The notes below the pieces were generated by a model. That model was given only the letters and a program-made list of their open reading frames with translations, was not told the DNA's origin and did not search any database. From Candidatus Moraniibacteriota bacterium (GTDB lineage Bacteria; Patescibacteriota; Minisyncoccia; Moranbacterales; UBA1568), in NCBI GenBank assembly GCA_028688415.1, contig JAQTYF010000001.1, positions 577,895-641,894 of the forward strand: 64,000 nucleotides of DNA, given 5' to 3'. Every line of letters starts with the position of its first letter. Positions within the stretch are counted from its first letter, which is position 1. The translations under genes were made by a program, and so were the position numbers. This document shows, piece by piece, positions 9,844-24,614 of the stretch.

Positions 9844-10752
9844 ATGACTATCAAAGAATTACAAAATGAATTTCTCTCTGCTGAGAAGAAATATATTGAT
9901 CCTATTGATTTTTTTCTCTTGATCGCTCATACGCTCAAGAAAGAAAAAATATTTATTCTTACTCATCCTGAATATGAAATAAATTCATCGGAAGAAAAAA
10001 ATATCAGAAACAACATACTCCGTAGAATACAACACGAACCCATAGCGTACATTACTGGATCCAAAGAATTCTATGGCTATGATTTTACTGTTACAAAAGA
10101 TACTCTCATACCGCGACCAGAAACAGAACAGATAGTTGAGTTAGTTATTGAATCAGTTCATAATCAACAATTAACAGAAAACAAGGAACAGAAAATTGCC
10201 ATTATCGATATTGGTACAGGAAGCGGAAACATTATTATTTCCATCGTAAAGGAAATAAAAAAACAATTCACCTCGTCTGTTTCAAATATATCCTTTTATG
10301 CTCTTGATATCTCTCTCCCTGCCCTTGTTGTCGCGAAAGAAAATGCGAAGAAACACGCTGTCGAGAACAATATAGAATTTTATACGAGTGATCTCCTCGA
10401 AGGAATGAAAGAAAAAATCCCTCAAACAGATATTCTCATTATCACTGCCAACCTCCCCTATGTCTCACATACTTTGTATGAGAATACGCCACCAGACGTA
10501 CATAACTTTGAACCAATGACCGCGCTTATAAGCGAAGAAGACGGTCTCGCTCATTATCATCGTCTCTTGAAAAAAATCAAACAACTCTCTTATACGAAAC
10601 AATCTTTTTTTCTTTTATTGGAGATGAGTCCTGAACAGTCGCTTCCTCTCTCACGTTTTATTTCCGATCTCTTTCCTCAAGCAACCGTACACATACACCA
10701 AGATCTTGCACAAAAAGATCGTATTGTTTCTATTATTCTCTCGCGTCTATAA
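9844..10752 (+). CDS. prmC: Release factor glutamine N5-methyltransferase (HemK/PrmC family)
   Basis: SAM-binding IDIGTGSGNI; NLPY variant of the NPPY motif; located immediately after prfA. Confidence 0.75.
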   Translation: MTIKELQNEFLSAEKKYIDPIDFFLLIAHTLKKEKIFILTHPEYEINSSEEKNIRNNILRRIQHEPIAYITGSKEFYGYDFTVTKDTLIPRPETEQIVELVIESVHNQQLTENKEQKIAIIDIGTGSGNIIISIVKEIKKQFTSSVSNISFYALDISLPALVVAKENAKKHAVENNIEFYTSDLLEGMKEKIPQTDILIITANLPYVSHTLYENTPPDVHNFEPMTALISEEDGLAHYHRLLKKIKQLSYTKQSFFLLLEMSPEQSLPLSRFISDLFPQATVHIHQDLAQKDRIVSIILSRL

Positions 10753-10785
10753 AATTTCCTTATTATAAGCTACACCACAAAAAAA

Positions 10786-10818
10786 CAAAAACTCCGATAA
10801 ACGGAGTTTTTGTTTTTT
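10786..10818. terminator. Bidirectional intrinsic terminator (prmC / lysine-rich gene)
   Basis: aaaaactccgataaacggagtttttgtttttt: stem actccg/cggagt flanked by A- and T-runs. Confidence 0.65.
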
Positions 10819-10847
10819 GAACCAAAAGAAATGGAACAGAAAAACGA

Positions 10848-11006
10848 TTATCGTTTCTTTGTTACTTTCTTAGCGGCCTTCTTGACTACTTTTTTTACAG
10901 CTTTTTTTGTAACTTTCTTAGCTACTTTTTTTACAGCTTTTTTTGTAACTTTCTTAGCTACTTTTTTTACAGCTTTTTTTACTGTTTTCTTTTTTGCTAC
11001 TGCCAT
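10848..11006 (-). CDS. Small lysine-rich repeat protein (52 aa), histone H1-like/basic nucleoid-protein-like composition
   Basis: Manual translation MAVAKKKTVKKAVKKVAKKVTKKAVKKVAKKVTKKAVKKVVKKAAKKVTKKR with strong SD aaggaggtga 5 nt upstream. The track ORF 10810..11025(+) is the opposite strand of the same repeats. Confidence 0.6.
   Translation of the reverse strand: MAVAKKKTVKKAVKKVAKKVTKKAVKKVAKKVTKKAVKKVVKKAAKKVTKKR
10861..10980. repeat. About 3.3 tandem copies of a 36-bp unit (gtaactttcttagctactttttttacagcttttttt) inside the lysine-rich CDS
   Basis: Two perfect units at 10909..10944 and 10945..10980, plus a diverged unit with a 12-nt insertion. Units keep the frame and encode KKAVKKVAKKVT. 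Not CRISPR-like. Confidence 0.6.
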
Positions 11007-11408
11007 AGTACTCACCTCCTTCTAACCACTCTTCTTTTGTTTCATATGTTTATGAAACAGAAAAAAGAAATATGGAATTATTTATTTTTGTTTCACACAA
11101 TAATTTTTGTGCGTATTACAGAAAATTATTTCTGCATACTTTTATTATACTCTTTTTTTAGAAATTGCAAAGGAAAAAAATATCTGTCAACCCCCTCATT
11201 CTCTTTTTTTGTAAAAATAATTTTTTATTTTTTCTTATAAAAATATTTCTTCTTTTATTCTGAAAAAATAAAAGAGAAAAATATTCATTCAATTATAAAA
11301 AAGAGTACACACTCATAAAAATAAAAAGAAGAAAAATAATTACCAAGAAAAATATTTTTCTATATTATCTTCCCTTTTATTACGCCAAAAATAGAATGAT
11401 TTGTCCAG

Positions 11409-11437
11409 TTGACAGCTGTTTTTCGAAGACGTAGTAT
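11409..11437 (+). promoter_or_regulatory. Consensus sigma70-type promoter TTGACA-17-TAGTAT upstream of the 11559 gene
   Basis: ttgaca at 11409-11414, 17-nt spacer, tagtat at 11432-11437; about 120 nt before the ATG; in a ~550-bp AT-rich divergent intergenic region. Confidence 0.5.
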
Positions 11438-11558
11438 GAGAGGCAGAGCGGTCGATTAACTTATCGATGACACAAAAGATAGGTAAGTTAAAAGAAGCTT
11501 CAACGTAAGCCAGTACCTTATTAATCTTCATAAAAACTAGAAAGAGGGGTGAAAAGAT

Positions 11559-12143
11559 ATGGAACAACAAGATCCTATGTTCGAAGAATCTCCTGCTGAT
11601 CAAGCAAAAGCTTGGGTGCAAGAAAATCTTCGTATCATTGTCAGCGTCTTCATTGTTGCGGCAATCGCTCTGGGCATTTACTCCTACTCACAACGTACGG
11701 CAGTAATCTCAGACGACGAGAATACCCTTCTCGAAACCAAGCAAGGTGAAACAAGTATTCTGACAGGAGATACGAAATCAGAAGGCTCCGTAAAAGCAGA
11801 TGTGAAAAACAACGTTATTGTCACTCCGGAACTTAGTCGAGAAACCGAAACATCTTTCGTGGAACAGGCGGAACTCGGAAACGGAACAACACATTTGGCT
11901 CGTCGAGCCCTTGCTCATTACCTGGAAAAGAATCAAGACTCATCACTCACAGCGGAACACAAAGTATATATCGAAGATTATCTTCGAAAAAATGTTCGCT
12001 TTGAAGGAGCGGTTATCCCTCAGACATCTCTCGAATTTTCGAAAGACTTGATCAAACAAGGCATTGAGAAATCAAAGATGTTGAATGAAAAACAATTACA
12101 GAACTTAAAAAAATATTCTTCTCGTGTCAGCGCTTACCGCTAA
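11559..12143 (+). CDS. Hypothetical membrane-anchored protein
   Basis: SD agaggggtga; single TM IIVSVFIVAAIALGIYSY; otherwise hydrophilic. Confidence 0.5.
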   Translation: MEQQDPMFEESPADQAKAWVQENLRIIVSVFIVAAIALGIYSYSQRTAVISDDENTLLETKQGETSILTGDTKSEGSVKADVKNNVIVTPELSRETETSFVEQAELGNGTTHLARRALAHYLEKNQDSSLTAEHKVYIEDYLRKNVRFEGAVIPQTSLEFSKDLIKQGIEKSKMLNEKQLQNLKKYSSRVSAYR

Positions 12144-15647: not shown

Positions 15648-18122
15648 ATGCTCAACAAAAAACAACAAGAAAAGGTTCAAGGAGTTCCCGATTTGAAAAA
15701 AATTATCACTGAAATTCCTGTTACCAAAGGACGCGGCACAGAGCCTTTTGTAAAAGTCTTCAACTATAGTGATCAAAACATCGCCAAAAGTTCTCTCGGG
15801 TCTCTTGTGGGTGTTTTTGAAATTTCCGATAAAGATGAAAATTCTGTCTTCATTGTCAATTTCCTTACTTCTGTAGCAAAAAAAGAATATTTCAGCAATC
15901 TCCGTCGTGGATCTATCGAAAGTTTCGAAGCATCTCTCCATAAAATCAATCTTGCACTAGCAGAACTCGTCAAAGACGGTCATATCGCATGGCTTGGTAA
16001 GTTTCATGGTGCTATCGGCGTACTCGAAAAAAATAATTTGCATTTTTCCGTTACTGGACAGGCACAGATACTCCTCTTACGGAACGGTAACCTTTCAGAA
16101 ATAAGTGATGGAATAACTTCTCCAGAGTCTAACACTCATCCTCTTAAAACGTTTATTGAAATATCGAGCGGACGACTCGTTCCCCAAGATAAAATCATAC
16201 TCACGTCTCCCGAACTTTTTGAACTTCTCTCTACCGAAGAGCTTGAGAAAAATGCTCTCCGTATGGACAACGAGCAGTTTTCTCAGTTTTTACGAACGGT
16301 ACTCGTAAATAAACTCGATATGGGAGGATCTCTTATCGTCGATTTTGAAGAAACTGAACAAATACAAGAAGTAAAGAAAGAGGTAAAAAAGGTTATTAAA
16401 ACGTCACAGAATTTTTTCAGTCAAGAGCCATTTGAAACTGCTCAAAAAGAAAAGAATGCTATCATCGTAAACGGCGTACTCAATAATCATGAAGTTTCTG
16501 ATGCCGAAAAAGAATATACCGATCCTCGTACTCGACATATTTATGTCCATGGCGACACTGAACAGATAGATGAAAGTCATCCATTTCAAGAAAATATGCA
16601 GTCCTTTTTGCAAGACATCGCTCATTCGTTGGAAGGCATACTTATTGCTCAAAAAAAATTACTCCGTAAATTTGGAAAGAGAATAACCCTTTCTTTTGTC
16701 TTCCTGACGGAAAGAACCCTTACAGCATTCTCTACTTTTTTCTCTCTCATTCATAAACAATGGATCAAAGGAAGCGCCGTTCTCGTATCCAAAATACGGT
16801 CTGTCCAAATCATATCACCTATCAAAAAGAAGATTCAGAAAACCTCTCCTATACATATAGAGTACAAACAATCCTTCCCAAGTGATATCAAAATCGTGCC
16901 AACACAAAAAATTTCCCCTGAAAATGAAGAGCCTTCCTCGGATCTTCCTCCGTTTATAAAGGAAAAATTGGTTGCTTTTTATAAGAAAAAAGAACTGTCT
17001 CATCCAGAACATCTCTTTTGGGAACGCTTTATTACTCTGTTTTCACCTCTTTTTTCTTTCTTTATATCATCGTTTACAAAAGTATCCCGAGCATTATTCA
17101 AATTTTTTGTCTTTATCATAGCATTCGCTAAACCAAAGATTCAGCGTCTTTTTGCCCTCTCATTTCTTTTTCTCAGAACGAAATTAAATCAGTATGAAAA
17201 AAAACAGATCATCCTTGCATCTGGTATTGTTGTCACCCTCATTCTGGGAAGTGTTTTTCTAGTGAAATTTTTCAATAAACAAGAAGCTTCCCCAGTGGTT
17301 GAGGTGCCAATTGAAAATGCTCTTCCCTTTTCCTCTTCTCTCGAAACAGAGAAAAATATCCACTTGGTGCAAGACATGCAATCCATCATGACCACGGAAG
17401 ACACCATTATTACTTCAGTACTACTCGATGATGAAATATACCTCATCACTCCCACTGCTGTTCTTAGTGTGAACGAAAAGAAAAGTTTTCTCTTACCAGA
17501 AAAAAGTGGTTCTGTGACACTCGCTACTCCGATGAATGACTTGCGCCTTATTTTCATCTCTACAGATACCAACGAGCTTTTCTCTTTTGCTCCAAGCAAT
17601 GGAAAATTCACAAAAAATACCCTCAATCTCTTGGACGGAACTATCATACAGTCTATCGGCACTTATCTGACATATCTTTATGTATTGGATGCCAATACCA
17701 ATCACATCTATCGTTTTCCACGTGCAGAAGGTGGTTTTGGAACAGGCTCTCTCTGGACCAAATCCCCCCTCGCTCTTGGAAACTCTCCTCAAATAGCAGT
17801 AAGCGAGACAATTTTTGTTGCTCCAGATACAACTCACATTTCAGCTTTTTTCCGTGGTATATCTACCAAGGATTTTGAATCGCCTCTCGCACCCCTTTCT
17901 CTTTCTTCTCTTCTCGCTTCACCTGATCTCGAGAATATCTATGCAATCGATACTAACGAGAAACGCATACTGATATGGAATCAGGAAGGAATGCTCATTG
18001 CTCAGTATTTCTCCGAACAATTTTCTACTCTCAAAAGTATTTCGGTTGATGAAAAAAAGAATACGGTGTTTATCACAACCGAGAAGGAACTTCTGTCATT
18101 CACCCTTGATTCAAAAAAATAA
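15648..18122 (+). CDS. Large membrane protein: PP2C/SpoIIE-like (apparently non-catalytic) N-terminal domain, two TM segments, extracytoplasmic repeat-rich C-terminal half
   Basis: Residues 1-230 show a PPM-fold-like alternation (LGSLVGVFEISD...ILLLRNGN...IILTSPELFELL) without the DGHGG metal motif. TMs FKFFVFIIAFA and IILASGIVVTLILGSVFLV. C-terminal YVLD/IYAID-type repeats. Confidence 0.55.
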   Translation: MLNKKQQEKVQGVPDLKKIITEIPVTKGRGTEPFVKVFNYSDQNIAKSSLGSLVGVFEISDKDENSVFIVNFLTSVAKKEYFSNLRRGSIESFEASLHKINLALAELVKDGHIAWLGKFHGAIGVLEKNNLHFSVTGQAQILLLRNGNLSEISDGITSPESNTHPLKTFIEISSGRLVPQDKIILTSPELFELLSTEELEKNALRMDNEQFSQFLRTVLVNKLDMGGSLIVDFEETEQIQEVKKEVKKVIKTSQNFFSQEPFETAQKEKNAIIVNGVLNNHEVSDAEKEYTDPRTRHIYVHGDTEQIDESHPFQENMQSFLQDIAHSLEGILIAQKKLLRKFGKRITLSFVFLTERTLTAFSTFFSLIHKQWIKGSAVLVSKIRSVQIISPIKKKIQKTSPIHIEYKQSFPSDIKIVPTQKISPENEEPSSDLPPFIKEKLVAFYKKKELSHPEHLFWERFITLFSPLFSFFISSFTKVSRALFKFFVFIIAFAKPKIQRLFALSFLFLRTKLNQYEKKQIILASGIVVTLILGSVFLVKFFNKQEASPVVEVPIENALPFSSSLETEKNIHLVQDMQSIMTTEDTIITSVLLDDEIYLITPTAVLSVNEKKSFLLPEKSGSVTLATPMNDLRLIFISTDTNELFSFAPSNGKFTKNTLNLLDGTIIQSIGTYLTYLYVLDANTNHIYRFPRAEGGFGTGSLWTKSPLALGNSPQIAVSETIFVAPDTTHISAFFRGISTKDFESPLAPLSLSSLLASPDLENIYAIDTNEKRILIWNQEGMLIAQYFSEQFSTLKSISVDEKKNTVFITTEKELLSFTLDSKK

Positions 18123-18184: not shown

Positions 18185-20677
18185 TTAGAGAGGTTTTTCT
18201 GCAAGCCTCATACGATTCATAATTTCACGATTGACAATAGTCGCATCACGACCATACCGGAGACGCGAGAGTTCTTTGAGAGCATTCGCTATCTCTTGAC
18301 TCCCATTCGTTGGAGCGTATGTTTTCATATTGAATGGCTTGGTAAGCTCATTGTTCATAAGGAGTCTCGCAAAACAATTCCGATTGTCGACATTCATCAG
18401 ATCGCGGGCTGAAAATACAGGAAGAAATTGCTTCTCAAGAAATTCAGCGTCTTCTGATCCGATACGGAACGAAACAAGCGATCCGACATTCCCAAACACT
18501 GCCTTGGAAATTTCTTCTTTGAGCTGAGCAATAAACTGATGCGCCATTGTGAGCACCAATCGATATTTACGAGCCTCTGAGAGGATTTGAGCAATAGAAT
18601 TTGTGGTTACATTCTGGAACTCATCCATATAGAGATAGAAGTCGGTCCGCTCCTCTTCTGGTGTGTCTACACGTGACAGCGCTGCCATCAAGATCTTTCC
18701 GACAATGACCATGCCGAGCAGTTTCGCATTGATTTCACCGATTTTTCCTTTGGAAAGATTGACGAGAAGAATCTTCTTTCCGTCCATAATTTCACGGAAA
18801 TTGAGCGTGCTTTTCTGCTGTCCAATGATTGGGCGCATCATATCATTGGAAATGAACGTTGTAAGCTTGGAAGTAATATACGGCACCATGTTGGCAAGCG
18901 CCGCTTCTCCACCTGCCTTCTCTGCTTCTTTGGTCCAAAAATCGTATGCGATAGGGTTATTACACTTGGAAAGTTTGTACTTGCGAAAATCTTCATCTGC
19001 TAATACTTTGGAAATTTCCATGAGCGTTGATCCGCTCTCAGGATCCTCCATGATAAGCAACATTGCATTACGCATATATTGTTCAAACATTGGTCCACCA
19101 GTGGCTTTCAGATCATAGAGTTGATCAAATATACCAATCATTTCATTGATAACGAACGTTTTTTGCTCTGGATGTTGTGCATCGTACTCGAGCATATTGA
19201 GCCCAATAGGACGTTCGGTATCCGAAGGATCAAAGAGAATGACGTCTTCTGCTCGTTCTTTGGGAATAGCGGTCAAAATATCTTCAATAGCATCTCCGTG
19301 AGGATCAATAAAACAAAAACCATGTCCCGCAAGAGCGTCTTTCTTGGCCATTTCCTGAAGATACACCGACTTACCAACACCCGTCTGTCCAATAACATAC
19401 ATATGACGTCGACGATCATTTTCAGTAATACGAATATCTGTCTTCGTACCGCGATAATCATTGTATCCGAGAAGCAGTCCTTCTTCTGGAATGTTCACTG
19501 GTGGAGGAGCAGCTCCTGCTTTGAGCCACTTGATTTTTGGTGTAGCCGTCGTCGAAATCGGGAAATGGAAAATACTCGCCAATTCTTCGACCGAAAGGAT
19601 CATCTGCTGTTCATCATTAAAGTTACGGAAAATAAAATCATACACTGCTTGTTTTTCACTGATGCGTTTTTTGATACGAAACGTATTTACTTCTGGATTC
19701 TCGAATTGACCAAAAGCATTTTCCAAATGACCCAGGATTTCTTCCGCACGCTCTTGAGTCCCTGCTGATGCAATCAGTCGTATATTGGCACGAAAAGCTC
19801 CTTTATTCGTTTTTTCATCGATAGATTTTACCAATTCTTGTTCTTCGGGAGTAAGGTTGACTTGTTTTTTATCATCTAGAATTGAATTCTTCTCTTTAGA
19901 ACTTGTCAGTGTCTTCATCATTTCTTTTCCAAACGAAGCAGAGGCCTCACGAAGCATTGATTGATGTTTAGCATCCTTGAGACGCTTCCCTTCTTGCATC
20001 CTCTGGGCAATCTTTTTCCCTTCACTACGCCACGCAGTATTCGTACGAGTGAGGAGTATCTGAAGCGAGATGCCTTCTTCGATAGAATTCAACTTACTTA
20101 AAGCATTGGAAATAACATTGAGTGGATCAACATCGAGTCCACGATAGGTACGAAGAGGAAGAGCATGGCTATGAACGAGATCGAGTACAGAAACTGCCGT
20201 ATAGCCACCCGGCGAAAAGATAGTGTATTCCGTCGCTTTTTCAATCACTGCATGAGGGAAAAAACTATGTATTTGTTTCTCTGCACTCTCCCTGAAACGC
20301 TTTGGAACAGAAAGGTAGAAAAATATTTCTTCACTCGAAGAAGGATTGGCAATTTCAAAAATGATTGTTGGAGTATCAAAAAAAAGTCCTTTGAAAAAAC
20401 CTCCCTTGGGCTTCAGAACAGTCAGTGAAGCAAGTAACTGCTCCATAGCAAAAATCTCTTCTTTCCATGCCTCAGCATTCGGAGCCTGTTGCGCTCCCTC
20501 TGGAATTTCTTTACGTGTCACGCGTATCATTTCCAGATCCATATTCATAGACTGATTGATCTGATAACGAAAACGAAAAAAACTTCGAATAACGAGAAAT
20601 GTTCCGCTGATGATAGCGACAGACGCCAAAAGATACACCAACGGTATCAAAAGGATATTCAAATCAAGACCGGTCAT
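18185..20677 (-). CDS. Membrane-anchored type IV secretion ATPase, VirB4/VirD4 (TraG/TraD)-like, FtsK-HerA superfamily
   Basis: N-terminal TM LIPLVYLLASVAIISGTFLVI; Walker A HMYVIGQTGVGKS; IDPHGD; Walker B FYLYMDEFQNV; RKY-type motif EARKYRLVLTMAHQFIAQL as in VirB4 motif C / TraG-D_C. Confidence 0.7.
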   Translation of the reverse strand: MTGLDLNILLIPLVYLLASVAIISGTFLVIRSFFRFRYQINQSMNMDLEMIRVTRKEIPEGAQQAPNAEAWKEEIFAMEQLLASLTVLKPKGGFFKGLFFDTPTIIFEIANPSSSEEIFFYLSVPKRFRESAEKQIHSFFPHAVIEKATEYTIFSPGGYTAVSVLDLVHSHALPLRTYRGLDVDPLNVISNALSKLNSIEEGISLQILLTRTNTAWRSEGKKIAQRMQEGKRLKDAKHQSMLREASASFGKEMMKTLTSSKEKNSILDDKKQVNLTPEEQELVKSIDEKTNKGAFRANIRLIASAGTQERAEEILGHLENAFGQFENPEVNTFRIKKRISEKQAVYDFIFRNFNDEQQMILSVEELASIFHFPISTTATPKIKWLKAGAAPPPVNIPEEGLLLGYNDYRGTKTDIRITENDRRRHMYVIGQTGVGKSVYLQEMAKKDALAGHGFCFIDPHGDAIEDILTAIPKERAEDVILFDPSDTERPIGLNMLEYDAQHPEQKTFVINEMIGIFDQLYDLKATGGPMFEQYMRNAMLLIMEDPESGSTLMEISKVLADEDFRKYKLSKCNNPIAYDFWTKEAEKAGGEAALANMVPYITSKLTTFISNDMMRPIIGQQKSTLNFREIMDGKKILLVNLSKGKIGEINAKLLGMVIVGKILMAALSRVDTPEEERTDFYLYMDEFQNVTTNSIAQILSEARKYRLVLTMAHQFIAQLKEEISKAVFGNVGSLVSFRIGSEDAEFLEKQFLPVFSARDLMNVDNRNCFARLLMNNELTKPFNMKTYAPTNGSQEIANALKELSRLRYGRDATIVNREIMNRMRLAEKPL

Positions 20678-21647: not shown

Positions 21648-24614
21648 TTATTGAGTGGTCGTATAGAGACCGAGGCGTTGTCCTGGAGTAACCAGCGTCG
21701 ATATCTTCTTGAGATAATCCATGACCGTGACGTTCGGGTGTTCACGCAAAAATGCTATCCTATCGAAAGCAATCTTGTTATCCTCTACACCCTGAAAAAA
21801 TTGCGTAAAATTTTTGATTTGTTCGTGATTCAAACCTGTTTTGTATCCCGTAAAAGATCCTGCTTTGTAGAGTTTTGCATCTTTGAATATATCCATCAGC
21901 TTGATAGAACTCATTTCTTTTTTATCCACAATCCAGTCTTGGCCCAAAGCAGGGTTTTCCATTCGAAATATCTGCATATACCAATCATTCACACGAGGGA
22001 TGAGTTCTGCTGTAAATACTGGTTCACGCGAAACAGATGGTGATTCTACAGGAACAACATTGCTCACAGGAGACTCGGTGACCCGTTCCAATGGAGGAGT
22101 ATTTTCTCCAACAGATTGTGTGGCAATCTTTCCACTCAGAATTTCATCCACTTTGGCATTGGTCAGTGTCGTACCAGGATGCGAGGCGACATAGTCTGCT
22201 ATTTTTGCATCATTGGCAGTGATGGAAACTATCTGATCAGGAGAAAGAGACTGAGCTTGAGAAAGAGCATTCTCAACAAATGCTTTATCAATACCATGAT
22301 CAGAAAACTTAATTGTTTCGCCAGCCTTCAATTGTACGTCACCGTATTTATCTTTCAGCGCATCGATAAAATGAGTTTTTTCTGCCCCTTCGAGTTTCAG
22401 CGTGTCAGCTACCCCTCCTGCTATTTTCCACACTGAGTCACCTGGCTTCACGACATAATCCTGATTGAATACACCTGTGAGAGGGTCTGTATCTGGTTGA
22501 GGAACCTGAGGTGCTTCAATGGGCGCTTCTGATGGTACAGGAACAGACGGAATCGCTAGCGGTGACACTTCTCCAGGAGTCGGAATCTGTGCGGATGCCT
22601 GAGGAGTATTTCCTATTTGATCTTTCACCCAGTCCACTGCCTGATTGCCACCCAGATGATCCATAGCGACCTGAGTCAGCCAGCCAGATCCGACAAGTCC
22701 ACCGACACCCAGGGCCGATACCTTACGCCATGTCTTCGCTCGTTTCTCATTTTGCAATTTCGTATTGAGAGCATTGATATCTTGATCAAGGAGGGTATTG
22801 AGCGCATCAAAAGTAACTTCTGGTTTCATGCCAAGACTTTCTGTCTTGAGTCTCTCCATCTCTTGAGCTATTTCCCCTTCTGCTTGATCAACTCTTTTTC
22901 TCTCTCCGAAACTCTCGAGGAGCGCCTCTGTACCAACAGCCATACCCGCTCCACTGGCCACTTTGCGAATAACTGAAGCAAAAGCAAGTGCTCCTGCTGC
23001 GGTTCCGCTCCCACCAGACAAAGCAATTCCTGCGGTAATGCCCAAGAAAGCTGCTGTAATAGCGAGTTTTCTTGTAAGTGGGATGCGATTATAGGCACGG
23101 CCCAAGTTTCCTAACAGAACAGTTACTTTCTCGATACCACTCGCATCTTTCAGATGTTCTGACTTGTATTGTGTTCGTTCATTGATGAGATTGGTGGATT
23201 CATCGAGCTTGTAATAACGCATGATACGCTCTATCTCTTTTGTTCTTTCCTCTGGAGTCAGTTGTTCTTCATCGATTCTCTTTTGAAGCAGTGCCACTTC
23301 TGCATTCTGAAGATTCTTCACCGCTGTCTCATAATAAACCTGTGCGTCATCTTTTCTCGCATCTTGCTCAATACCAAACATACTCTTGAATTTCTTCCAA
23401 GCATCCCTATTCTTGACATCCGTCTCCACCCAACGAGCACGCATCTCACCAACCATCGTTCGAAGACTATCTATGTTTGCTTGTTCTGCTTCTCGATCTG
23501 TCTCTAATGTTTTTTCTTCGGATGTTTGTAACTCAATTATCGGTTCATTTTTGATAGTCTCAGAAGCTTTTATCTCTTTTGGTTCTTCTTTTTCATCTGT
23601 TGGCACTGTATCAAAACTTCCTTCTTCCTCTTGATCAAGAAGCTCTCGCAATCTGGCTTCATGTCCTGCTCTCACCGATGCCAATCGATCATTTTCTGCT
23701 TTTTTCTCTGTTTTTTGTCTTTCGAGTTCTTCTTGTTCCGCTTTCTGCCACGCTTCTGCAGATACAGAATCCACAACAGGGATTGAAGATATTTTTTGTC
23801 CCTGTGCCTCTCTGACATAACCCTCTGTAGAAAGTTTTTCCTGTAATGCTTCAATAGAGAGACTGTGCGCTGTCATATCGCCTTCATCCTCTTCTCGTGG
23901 TTCTGAAAGCAATTCCTCAGCATTTGCACCCTGTCGAACATCCATCATCCCTTCTGTAAGTGCGGTTACAAAAATTCTCGACTGAGTTCCATCTGCATTT
24001 GTCTTCACCCACATATCTCCCACTTGTGGCACGAAATCTTCAAGACCACCCTCATTGTCTGAAGGTGGAACTATCGGTGGCTCGTCCGGTGGAATCGATC
24101 CTCTACCTCCCCCATTATTTCTACCTCCACGATCGCTTCCGGTCTGTGTTTGTGGCTTGCTTGATGTTTCTGCGTTCTTTCCGCTAGATTTTTTCTTCTG
24201 TGCAGATTCTTGATCAGAGATATTTTTTCTCTTTTTTTCAAGTGTCCTCACCATTTCTTCTCTTGATATGACTTCGGCATCCTCGACTTTCTCTCCTTGT
24301 TTTGCTTTCAGTTCTAATGCTTGTATTTCCTTTCTTAAGAAAGTAATTCTCTCATTAAGATGCTCTTTCTCTTTTAAATCAAGTGATCTGAGCACTATAT
24401 CATTCCCATTATTCTGAGGCTCAGAAATGCCGATATTGTTTTCGTTGTTTCGCCTGCGTTGATTCACAATCTTTCCTGATGTGGTACCAGCATCAAGACT
24501 AGCTGATACTATCGGTTGACTCCTTTCGTTCGAAATGCCTTTTCGAGCCTCAATAGCTGCTGCATTAGCACCTGCCATTATTATTTTTTTTTGTACACTG
24601 AACCTTTCCGCCAT
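21648..24614 (-). CDS. Large membrane protein with coiled-coil N-terminal region, TM segments, Pro-rich linker and LysM-like domain
   Basis: Coiled-coil/low-complexity N-terminal ~500 aa; TMs LAITAAFLGITAGIALSGG and ALGVGGLVGSGWL; Pro-rich QIPTPGEVSPLAIPSVPVPSEAPIEAPQVPQP; LysM-like YVVKPGDSVWKIAGGVAD...AGETIKF. Confidence 0.55.
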   Translation of the reverse strand: MAERFSVQKKIIMAGANAAAIEARKGISNERSQPIVSASLDAGTTSGKIVNQRRRNNENNIGISEPQNNGNDIVLRSLDLKEKEHLNERITFLRKEIQALELKAKQGEKVEDAEVISREEMVRTLEKKRKNISDQESAQKKKSSGKNAETSSKPQTQTGSDRGGRNNGGGRGSIPPDEPPIVPPSDNEGGLEDFVPQVGDMWVKTNADGTQSRIFVTALTEGMMDVRQGANAEELLSEPREEDEGDMTAHSLSIEALQEKLSTEGYVREAQGQKISSIPVVDSVSAEAWQKAEQEELERQKTEKKAENDRLASVRAGHEARLRELLDQEEEGSFDTVPTDEKEEPKEIKASETIKNEPIIELQTSEEKTLETDREAEQANIDSLRTMVGEMRARWVETDVKNRDAWKKFKSMFGIEQDARKDDAQVYYETAVKNLQNAEVALLQKRIDEEQLTPEERTKEIERIMRYYKLDESTNLINERTQYKSEHLKDASGIEKVTVLLGNLGRAYNRIPLTRKLAITAAFLGITAGIALSGGSGTAAGALAFASVIRKVASGAGMAVGTEALLESFGERKRVDQAEGEIAQEMERLKTESLGMKPEVTFDALNTLLDQDINALNTKLQNEKRAKTWRKVSALGVGGLVGSGWLTQVAMDHLGGNQAVDWVKDQIGNTPQASAQIPTPGEVSPLAIPSVPVPSEAPIEAPQVPQPDTDPLTGVFNQDYVVKPGDSVWKIAGGVADTLKLEGAEKTHFIDALKDKYGDVQLKAGETIKFSDHGIDKAFVENALSQAQSLSPDQIVSITANDAKIADYVASHPGTTLTNAKVDEILSGKIATQSVGENTPPLERVTESPVSNVVPVESPSVSREPVFTAELIPRVNDWYMQIFRMENPALGQDWIVDKKEMSSIKLMDIFKDAKLYKAGSFTGYKTGLNHEQIKNFTQFFQGVEDNKIAFDRIAFLREHPNVTVMDYLKKISTLVTPGQRLGLYTTTQ

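Follow-up and report, generated by a model that had tools for sequence, protein, structure and literature searches.

A stand-alone gene for a lysine-rich repeat microprotein in a Candidatus Moranbacteria genome

Which strand of a short tandem-repeat tract encodes a protein, and what might this protein do? The question is raised by positions 10,848 to 11,006 of a 64,000-nt stretch of the Candidatus Moraniibacteriota assembly GCA_028688415.1 (contig JAQTYF010000001.1, positions 577,895 to 641,894; this whole stretch is called the window below). The program-made list of open reading frames (ORFs) for the window, its track, gives a plus-strand ORF at this site, while a sequence-only reading of the DNA had proposed a lysine-rich protein on the minus strand. 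Our analysis shows that the minus-strand ORF is a genuine stand-alone gene of a Candidatus Moranbacteria genome. It belongs to a complete transcription unit of promoter, structured 5′ untranslated region (UTR), strong ribosome-binding site, ORF and terminator, and the position and reading frame of this unit are conserved across a Moranbacteria clade. The length of the protein drifts through gain and loss of whole repeat units, from 23 to 53 amino acids. The microprotein is best described as a well-supported addition to the loosely defined bacterial class of histone-H1-like lysine-rich proteins, not as a family member by test. Current understanding is not overturned by this. GenBank already carries the gene call and the class is widespread; a well-documented member with its orthologues and repeat dynamics is added here.

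The minus-strand ORF encodes a polycation of KKxx tetrads

The features of the locus are compiled in Table 1. Translation of the minus-strand ORF yields MAVAKKKTVKKAVKKVAKKVTKKAVKKVAKKVTKKAVKKVVKKAAKKVTKKR (MAVAKKK…KKR), a product of 52 amino acids with 25 lysines and one arginine (K+R 26/52) and with no aspartate or glutamate. Its computed pI is 11.8, its mass 5.7 kDa and its net charge about +26. Tetrads of the form KKxx, in which x is A, V or T, fill the protein from residue 5 to the C-terminus. There is no hydrophobic core, and reading the sequence from its N-terminus MAVAKKK onward revealed no signal peptide or hydrophobic segment. The in-frame GTG at 11015 falls within the ribosome-binding site and is therefore not a plausible alternative start.

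Within the repeat array, the 36-bp periodicity is perfect over 95 nt (10886..10980). A degenerate DNA pattern encoding three KK[AVTI]2 tetrads followed by KK matched the array in nine overlapping registers, had no other match in the 64 kb and gave 0 matches in 100 shuffles. Translation and Tandem Repeats Finder hence confirm the 52-residue lysine-rich protein with 36-bp repeats that the sequence-only reading had described.

AlphaFold2, run with single-sequence input, predicted one continuous helix over residues 2-51 (pLDDT 86). The maximum of the hydrophobic moment falls at 90 degrees per residue, a period of 4, so that the helix would be locally amphipathic, with a hydrophobic stripe winding around it. 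Helical amphipathicity is seen in short windows; across the whole protein the stripe fails to persist at 100 degrees per residue. As Lys/Ala peptides and the H1 tail behave, the peptide would probably lack order when free and turn helical upon charge neutralization.

The protein had been called unannotated, which holds for the track only. In GenBank, contig JAQVTP010000004.1 (GCA_028699965.1) is 100% identical to the window over the 601 bp compared, and a 52-residue minus-strand gene is called there. The flanking proteins have exact GenBank matches in Candidatus Moranbacteria metagenome-assembled genomes, namely MDD2766687/MDD3965161 for PrmC and MDD2766689/MDD3965159 for a 194-aa neighbor. 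The accession numbers skipped between the two neighbors agree with a called gene at this place.

Table 1 Features of the microprotein locus, further ORFs of the window and secA-adjacent ORFs of other loci. Positions refer to the window unless a locus is named.
Feature	Position	Strand	Basis or remarks
Polylysine microprotein coding sequence	10848..11006	(-)	ATG at 11006, TAA at 10848-10850; ORF/translation, positional orthologues, gene call in GCA_028699965.1
36-bp (12-codon) tandem repeat array in coding sequence	10879..10980	(-)	Tandem Repeats Finder; period 36, 2.8 copies, 96% matches, score 190
Shine-Dalgarno AAGGAGGTGA	11012..11021	(-)	GGAGG 8 nt 5′ of ATG
Promoter	11144..11171	(-)	-35-like TTTGCA 11166-11171, 16-nt spacer, -10 TATAAT 11144-11149; consensus scan
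Structured 5′UTR	11038..11137	(-)	Alignment and RNAalifold; ~135 nt from predicted transcription start
Leader hairpin 1	11118-11135	(-)	Alignment and RNAalifold
Leader hairpin 2	11094-11113	(-)	Alignment and RNAalifold
Leader hairpin 3	11038-11060	(-)	Alignment and RNAalifold
Leader pyrimidine tract	11061-11075	(-)	Paired with ribosome-binding site by RNAalifold
3′UTR and bidirectional intrinsic terminator	10779..10841	(-)	Conserved 3′UTR 10819-10841; terminator 10779-10818
Track ORF, F/T/A-rich, 71 aa (shadow ORF)	10810..11025	(+)	Composition, start signals, frame inconsistency
Convergent prmC	9844..10752
Upstream intergenic region	11007-11558		552 bp, 26% GC
25-bp tandem repeat	11204-11271		2.7 copies, 80% matches
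194-aa divergent partner	11559-12143	(+)
Ribosomal protein L31 ORF	8055-8507	(+)	150 aa as listed
Large ORF	15648-18122		No Pfam family
830-aa ORF	18185-20677	(-)	PF12696, E = 2e-6
Large ORF	21648-24614		No Pfam family
secA-adjacent K-rich ORF	L041:1467-1577	(+)
secA-adjacent K-rich ORF	L032:2766-2966	(-)
secA-adjacent K-rich ORF	L061:2621-2851	(+)
secA-adjacent K-rich ORF	L058:7089-7169	(-)
secA-adjacent K-rich ORF	L075:832-1002	(-)
secA-adjacent K-rich ORF	L173:4001-4270	(+)
secA-adjacent K-rich ORF	L175:4001-4231	(+)

Orthologous loci keep the lysine frame

Among the listed matches of a genome pattern scan were two further Moraniibacteriota species with this locus (L116 and L120), in both of which a small K-rich ORF lies just 3′ of prfA-prmC and convergent to it. 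The products are MATKKKTAKKATKK…KKKK of 52 aa in L116 and MAAKKKAAKKTAKK…KKKKKK of 31 aa in L120. A metagenome scan with the RF1 of the window yielded 47 related loci. Where RF1 was at least 75% identical, a K-rich ORF was present near prmC in 13 of the 13 evaluable loci, on the convergent strand and about 100 bp after prmC. At 61-66% identity it was found in six of eight evaluable loci, with an inverted arrangement in L138 and in L141/L142; in the latter, the microprotein gene and its 194-aa neighbor are inverted as a unit relative to prmC. At 56% identity or less, it was present in none of seven.

The orthologous products have the form MA(A/V)KKK…KK(R)K and range from 23 to 53 aa. The shortest, 23-25 aa long, are those of L129-133 (MAKKKAAKRKKATKKKKGGKKRK), while L167 and L135 encode MAVAKKKTVKKAVKKVAKKATKK…KKRK. 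The window, L167 and L135 share all of the first 19 residues, although six nucleotides differ within the first 21 codons. At orthologous loci it is therefore the lysine frame that relatives conserve, and not the plus-strand frame or neither of the two.

The plus-strand ORF of the track is present as described, 71 aa long, rich in F, T and A and beginning with TTG, and the possibility that it is the real gene has to be weighed. It is open and longer than the minus-strand ORF, and this openness is forced by the lysine-codon composition, because stops are impossible in two of the three antisense frames of (AAR AAR GYN RYN)n. In the window, L116 and L120 the long antisense ORF occupies the +1 frame, in L167, L135 and L131 the codon-aligned one. 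The plus-strand product consequently differs completely among species, being F/T/A/V-rich in one and an unrelated S/Y/F/L/C-rich peptide in another. Its TTG start lies within the prmC terminator, it has no free ribosome-binding site and no promoter, and it overlaps the conserved ribosome-binding site and 5′UTR of the opposite gene. Substitutions between orthologues are nearly as silent in the plus-strand frame as in the lysine frame, with 2, 0 and 1 amino-acid changes in the track's frame versus 1, 0 and 1 in the lysine frame. Since both frames share their wobble positions, such counting fails to separate them, and we therefore decided the strand from start signals, promoter orientation and the frame inconsistency between species. 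The minus strand was also chosen by the GenBank annotation. A plus-strand gene is accordingly a rival already effectively refuted: the track's ORF is a shadow on the wrong strand, as the sequence-only reading had stated. This is a systematic annotation trap: opposite a polylysine gene there are long antisense ORFs free of stops, and a gene caller may settle on the wrong strand, as happened in the track.

A complete transcription unit with a conserved leader and a shared terminator

The strong Shine-Dalgarno sequence, the clean terminator and the AT-rich promoter region of about 500 bp that the sequence-only reading had pointed out are all real and conserved in orthologues. For the upstream part, we used an alignment of seven orthologue sequences (A2) from loci with an RF1 75-85% identical to that of the window (mean identity 78%). 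In these close orthologues, TAGRAGGAGGTGA is near-invariant, with one A/G column. A purine-rich ribosome-binding site (GGAGGTGA, GGATGGTGA, GGAAGGTGA or GAGAGGTGA) followed by an ATGGC start context was present in all 12 loci compared.

The block AAAAAAGAGTATAATAAAA, which contains the -10 element, is invariant in the seven sequences, and a TTGCAA-like -35 element lies 16-17 nt 5′ of it. In L120 and L116, TTGCAT-N17-TATAAT and TTGCTT-N17-TATAAT, respectively, precede the ORF. The gene is probably well expressed.

Between promoter and ribosome-binding site, the alignment suggests a conserved structured leader RNA. This is based on only six distinct sequences, in which 94.8% of cells were paired as opposed to 39-63% in slid-partner controls, and three pairs of hairpin 3 showed compensatory changes. 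The 5′UTR may act as a stabilizing or autoregulatory leader RNA. For the loop motif of hairpin 3, CATAAACWTATG, there was no convincing second site elsewhere in the window. A search of positions 10600-11700 against Rfam gave no family, only sub-threshold matches centered on the terminator hairpin.

The terminator is common to the microprotein gene and the convergent prmC. It consists of an A-tract, a perfect 16-bp stem and a U-tract and folds with -23.7 kcal/mol (z = -6.2). A simple promoter and terminator scan overlooked this element, apparently because its stem runs into A and T tracts, whereas folding reveals the hairpin clearly. Compensatory changes in the stem are seen among orthologues (CTCCG/CGGAG, GCCCCG/CGGGG, ACCCC/GGGGT). 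In L125, the terminator A-tract is shorter by one A than in the window.

The 5′ and 3′ untranslated parts are conserved at least as well as the ORF, which raises the alternative that the locus produces a non-coding A-rich RNA, or that the ORF is a regulatory upstream ORF whose peptide itself is irrelevant, such as a stalling leader peptide. A similar ORF precedes secA in other lineages of the Candidate Phyla Radiation (CPR), and in E. coli the regulatory ORF secM precedes secA. A co-transcribed downstream target, as in the SecM type, is absent in the window and its close orthologues: in the Moranbacteria lineage the ORF is followed by the terminator and then by a convergent gene, leaving nothing downstream to regulate. 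Although lengths and nucleotides differ, the peptide keeps its start, stop, frame, KKxx pattern and termini, and Rfam gave nothing beyond terminator-like fragments. We consider such an RNA-only or leader-peptide role very improbable.

Some further observations concern the surroundings of the gene. The locus neighbors are prmC, the 194-aa membrane protein and a family-4 glycosyltransferase. The upstream intergenic region is poor in GC relative to the window (41.6%), and its 25-bp tandem repeat lies in the AT-rich spacer between the divergent promoters. The divergent partner, with orthologues such as L141:6280-6900(-), has an acidic N-terminus (MEQQDPMFEES…), one transmembrane helix and no Pfam family. 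The spacer between the two genes measures 550-960 bp and is AT-rich, and their pairing is conserved.

Protein length changes by whole repeat units

A change in repeat number is seen between L135 and L167, which stem from different metagenomes and are 99.9% identical over 3.4 kb, with three mismatches and one 48-bp indel. This indel is exact, in frame and inside the array. The protein accordingly has 37 aa in L135 and 53 aa in L167, a difference of one 16-aa unit. The repeat unit itself differs as well, with 36 bp in the window and 48 bp in L167. Together with the range of orthologue lengths, this supports the predicted copy-number instability, with the proviso that collapse during assembly is possible for the L135/L167 pair. 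For the array of the window, two independent GenBank assemblies agree in copy number. Short-read Logan contigs (k=31) of the same samples break inside this array: L125 ends near 10914 and L002 starts at 10951. L125 represents a slightly different strain, with a substitution (AAA to AAG in the lysine frame) that is silent there as well as in the frame of the track.

Database searches and comparison with known lysine-rich proteins

We searched for homologs of the microprotein at several levels. With the 52-aa protein, phmmer gave no match at E ≤ 1e-3. A phmmer-type search at E ≤ 10 returned only unnamed or “hypothetical” entries, and the ten retrieved sequences (P0004-P0017 series) were N-terminally over-extended. 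Exact look-ups in a collection of 15 billion proteins were negative in 12 of 12 cases (the 52- and 55-aa forms of the window protein and ten relatives or analogues). Similar proteins occur in this collection only where the gene caller had run the ORF upstream through ordinary sequence to a wrong start, as in P0004-P0017; extension of a true polylysine ORF is thus a second way in which gene callers may err. Sequence searches in Pfam, NCBIfam and PDB yielded nothing above threshold: the weak matches to NNH2, DUF3349, a type III secretion translocon protein and cytochrome c are noise, and no ribosomal protein model matched.

The sequence-only reading had likened the protein to DNA-binding tails of the histone H1/Hc1 or AlgP type. 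Membership in these families did not hold up: the defining hidden Markov models (HMMs), domains and motifs were tested for Hc1, Hc2, H1 and AlgP/PhaF and were not found, so the protein is not a demonstrable member of any of them. The Hc1 model (HctA, PF07432) matched neither the window protein at E ≤ 0.1 nor the orthologues and analogues at E ≤ 10. The Hc2 model (HctB, PF07382; gathering cut-off 40 bits) had no match to the window protein at E ≤ 0.1. Its best score on any analogue was 20.4 bits, for a 129-aa verrucomicrobial protein, and only longer, proline-containing analogues scored at all. The winged-helix domain of linker histones (PF00538) was without a Pfam match in the window protein, which also has no proline and no KPAA motif.

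The likeness to the histone H1 tail stood as far as composition is concerned, without demonstrable homology. Like the C-terminal domain of eukaryotic linker histone H1 with its AKKA/KKxx-type lysine-alanine tracts, the microprotein is made up to about 40-50% of lysine, is spaced by A, V and T and lacks acidic residues, and KKAVKK strings are present in human H1.2 and in Leishmania H1 peptides. Free H1 tails are disordered, and binding to DNA makes them prone to form a helix. Unlike linker histone H1, the microprotein lacks the winged-helix domain, proline and S/TPKK motifs and is only 52 aa long.

Chlamydial Hc2 is a DNA-binding protein with lysine-rich repeats, and intragenic gain and loss of these repeats alters its length (PMC2848022). 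Variable intragenic lysine-rich repeats are found here too, in the L135/L167 indel with its collapse caveat. Hc2 differs, however, in being 165-237 aa long and composed of K/A/R/P pentamers, as opposed to KKxx tetrads in a protein of 52 aa. In Pseudomonas, the lysine-rich repeats of AlgP bind polyphosphate granules and DNA (PMC9239181), and the KPAA region of PhaF binds specific mRNAs and activates translation, with a repeat number that varies between species (PMC12818456). These proteins share with the microprotein lysine-rich, low-complexity repeats that are predicted to be disordered and polyanion-binding, and whose number varies widely between orthologues. Their KPAA units are attached to a folded N-terminal domain, whereas the window protein has neither proline nor a further domain.

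Lysine-repeat tails are also carried by bacterial enzymes, such as actinobacterial TopA (C-terminal domain) and mycobacterial Ku and HupB (PAKKA), and we found the (KKxx)n-type motif fused in frame to TopA and further proteins (see below). Lysine repeats stabilize the enzyme-DNA complex of TopA (PMC5714199) and modulate DNA binding of Ku (PMC3553676). In TopA, Ku and HupB the motif is an appendage, whereas here it constitutes the entire protein.

The (KKxx)n module is widespread and has a second conserved position

To survey the module at the DNA level, we scanned one genome per species with a DNA pattern and found at least 120 loci; all counts given here are among the 120 matches listed. These matches span Bdellovibrionota, Bacteroidota, Planctomycetota, Verrucomicrobiota, Pseudomonadota, Actinomycetota, Acidobacteriota, many CPR groups and DPANN archaea. 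Rough automatic sorting gave 26 stand-alone K-rich ORFs (three of which were mis-sorted, being tails on 209-230-aa proteins), 70 parts of a larger ORF and 24 cases truncated at a contig end. The 70 are read in the lysine frame, which speaks for this frame in the window as well, and the recognizable cases are tails on bona fide proteins. Judged from the translations, the hosts include topoisomerase I, adenylate kinase, sigma-70 (the primary sigma factor), DksA/TraR-like zinc-finger proteins, SWIB-domain proteins, ribosomal L24, archaeal S3 and succinyl-CoA synthetase alpha. Stand-alone ORFs typically start with MA(A/V/K)KK or MP(A/V)KK. (KKxx)n is a common, translated and portable polycationic element, and the window protein is this module alone. 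What is unusual about it is mainly this minimal, stand-alone form and its conservation in a CPR lineage. Microproteins of this type are nearly invisible to homology tools and protein databases, so that their real distribution is under-appreciated.

In other CPR lineages, a stand-alone (KKxx)n ORF recurs just 5′ of secA on the same strand, often in the order murB, ORF, secA. We observed this arrangement in Paceibacterota, Kaiserbacteria, Parcubacteria, Saccharibacteria and unassigned metagenome contigs. The gap between the K-rich ORF and secA is 65-250 bp, except in L173, where an opposite-strand gene of 212 aa lies in between. It is a second conserved position, distinct from the prmC-adjacent one of Moranbacteria. 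At another locus, a K-rich ORF (L177:4001-4210(+), P0017) lies directly 3′ of a reverse transcriptase (RVT_1) and a bAvd accessory gene. These neighbors resemble a diversity-generating retroelement, and the adjacency is probably coincidental.

The proximity to secA bears on two further explanations. One is that the product is an exported or released cationic peptide, antimicrobial or cell-penetrating, directed against host or competitor cells. CPR bacteria are often epibionts, KKAVKK and KKVAKK strings are present in designed and histone-derived antimicrobial peptides, short windows of the protein are amphipathic as a helix, and the analogous ORF is located directly 5′ of secA in several other CPR lineages. 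Yet the locus offers neither a signal peptide or leader nor a processing site, transporter or immunity gene, the protein contains very little that is hydrophobic (only A, V and T), the hydrophobic stripe is lost over the full length at 100 degrees per residue, and in many bacteria the KKxx motif is fused to cytoplasmic DNA and RNA enzymes. An exported peptide is therefore a very unlikely explanation.

The other explanation takes the stand-alone (KKxx)n microproteins for a CPR-wide family whose role would be specific, going beyond electrostatics, and tied to translation or secretion. It arises because the placement is conserved (next to prfA-prmC here; between murB and secA in Paceibacterota, Kaiserbacteria and Saccharibacteria) and the leader is conserved as well. 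We regard such a family as unlikely, although clearly less so than an exported peptide. If it were real, the protein could be a lineage-specific subunit associated with the ribosome or SecA, or a genetically encoded substitute for polyamines in metabolically reduced cells, and the 5′ leader in Moranbacteria would possibly be autoregulatory and might occlude the ribosome-binding site.

Nonspecific polyanion binding as the proposed function

For a protein so highly charged (about +26), with neither a hydrophobic core nor a signal peptide, hardly anything but polyanion binding is conceivable. We infer nucleic-acid binding as the most likely function. The polycation would bind polyanions without sequence specificity and neutralize their charge, most likely on DNA and possibly on RNA too. 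Nucleoid compaction would follow, in the manner of the C-terminal tail of linker histone H1 or of chlamydial Hc2, with a protein that would be disordered when free and helical when bound. Net charge and length, not the exact sequence, would govern this function. Repeat number varies freely while the KKxx pattern and both ends, MA(A/V)KKK and KK(R)K, are retained, which is consistent with such a dependence. That ultrasmall CPR bacteria retain a conserved transcription unit for this protein suggests that an abundant polycation matters for packing or neutralizing nucleic acids in tiny cells. Judged from sequence and comparison, the reading as a whole, namely a real gene with a plastic repeat and a nonspecific, charge-neutralizing, polyanion-binding product that acts most likely on DNA, appears to us somewhat better than an even bet.

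Several points weigh against this reading. Homology to a characterized family is not demonstrable because the sequence is of low complexity. Substitution counts do not tell the lysine frame from the +1 antisense frame, for the reason given above, and the length difference between L135 and L167 could have arisen by collapse of the repeat in short-read assembly. The genomic neighborhood points as much to RNA and translation as to DNA, with rpsB-tsf-rpmE-prfA-prmC here and a position directly upstream of secA in other CPR lineages.

This last point leads to the most serious rival, in which the gene is the same but its product acts mainly on RNA or the ribosome, as a ribosome-associated basic microprotein, an RNA chaperone or a translation modulator. 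The DNA-binding role suggested by the sequence-only reading is an inference, next to which binding of RNA or the ribosome counts as equally live. The translation neighborhood (rpsB, tsf as seen in L125, rpmE, prfA and prmC) is conserved across the clade, and in L120 a DEAD-box RNA helicase gene lies upstream of the microprotein gene. The protein could regulate its own synthesis through the conserved structured leader, as happens in ribosomal-protein operons. The ribosomal microproteins bS22, bL37, eL41, bTHX and Sra are similar to these microproteins in size (23-53 aa), in having more than 50% basic residues and in their strong ribosome-binding sites, and the orthologues of 23-25 aa in particular match known ribosomal microproteins in size and composition. 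A precedent is also given by PhaF, whose KPAA region binds mRNAs near the ribosome-binding site and activates translation (PMC12818456).

On the other side, the gene is convergent with prfA-prmC and has its own promoter and terminator, so that the two are not co-transcribed. Ribosomal microproteins have fixed lengths and specific sequences, whereas the window protein is a variable-length repeat without a sequence match to any ribosomal protein family. A range of 23-53 aa and the strain-level gain and loss of a 16-aa unit are unlike proteins that fill a fixed pocket in rRNA. An action mainly on RNA or the ribosome has perhaps a one-in-several chance, well ahead of the other rivals and behind the charge-neutralizing, mostly DNA-directed function that we favor. 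Our search of the literature for lysine-rich or H1-like proteins in CPR or Patescibacteria found nothing relevant.

Other observations in the window

Two further observations concern genes elsewhere in the window. The 830-aa ORF has a weak match to the TraG/TraD C-terminal domain, and its product may be a type IV secretion coupling protein. The two large ORFs listed with it in Table 1 are its neighbors. In the L31 ORF, the Pfam match begins at residue 56. In most related loci the L31 ORFs are about 95-110 aa long and start with MKQGIHP…; in L136 a longer overlapping ORF is present as well. L31 thus probably starts internally, and the long form would be an artefact of ORF listing and not an N-terminal extension.

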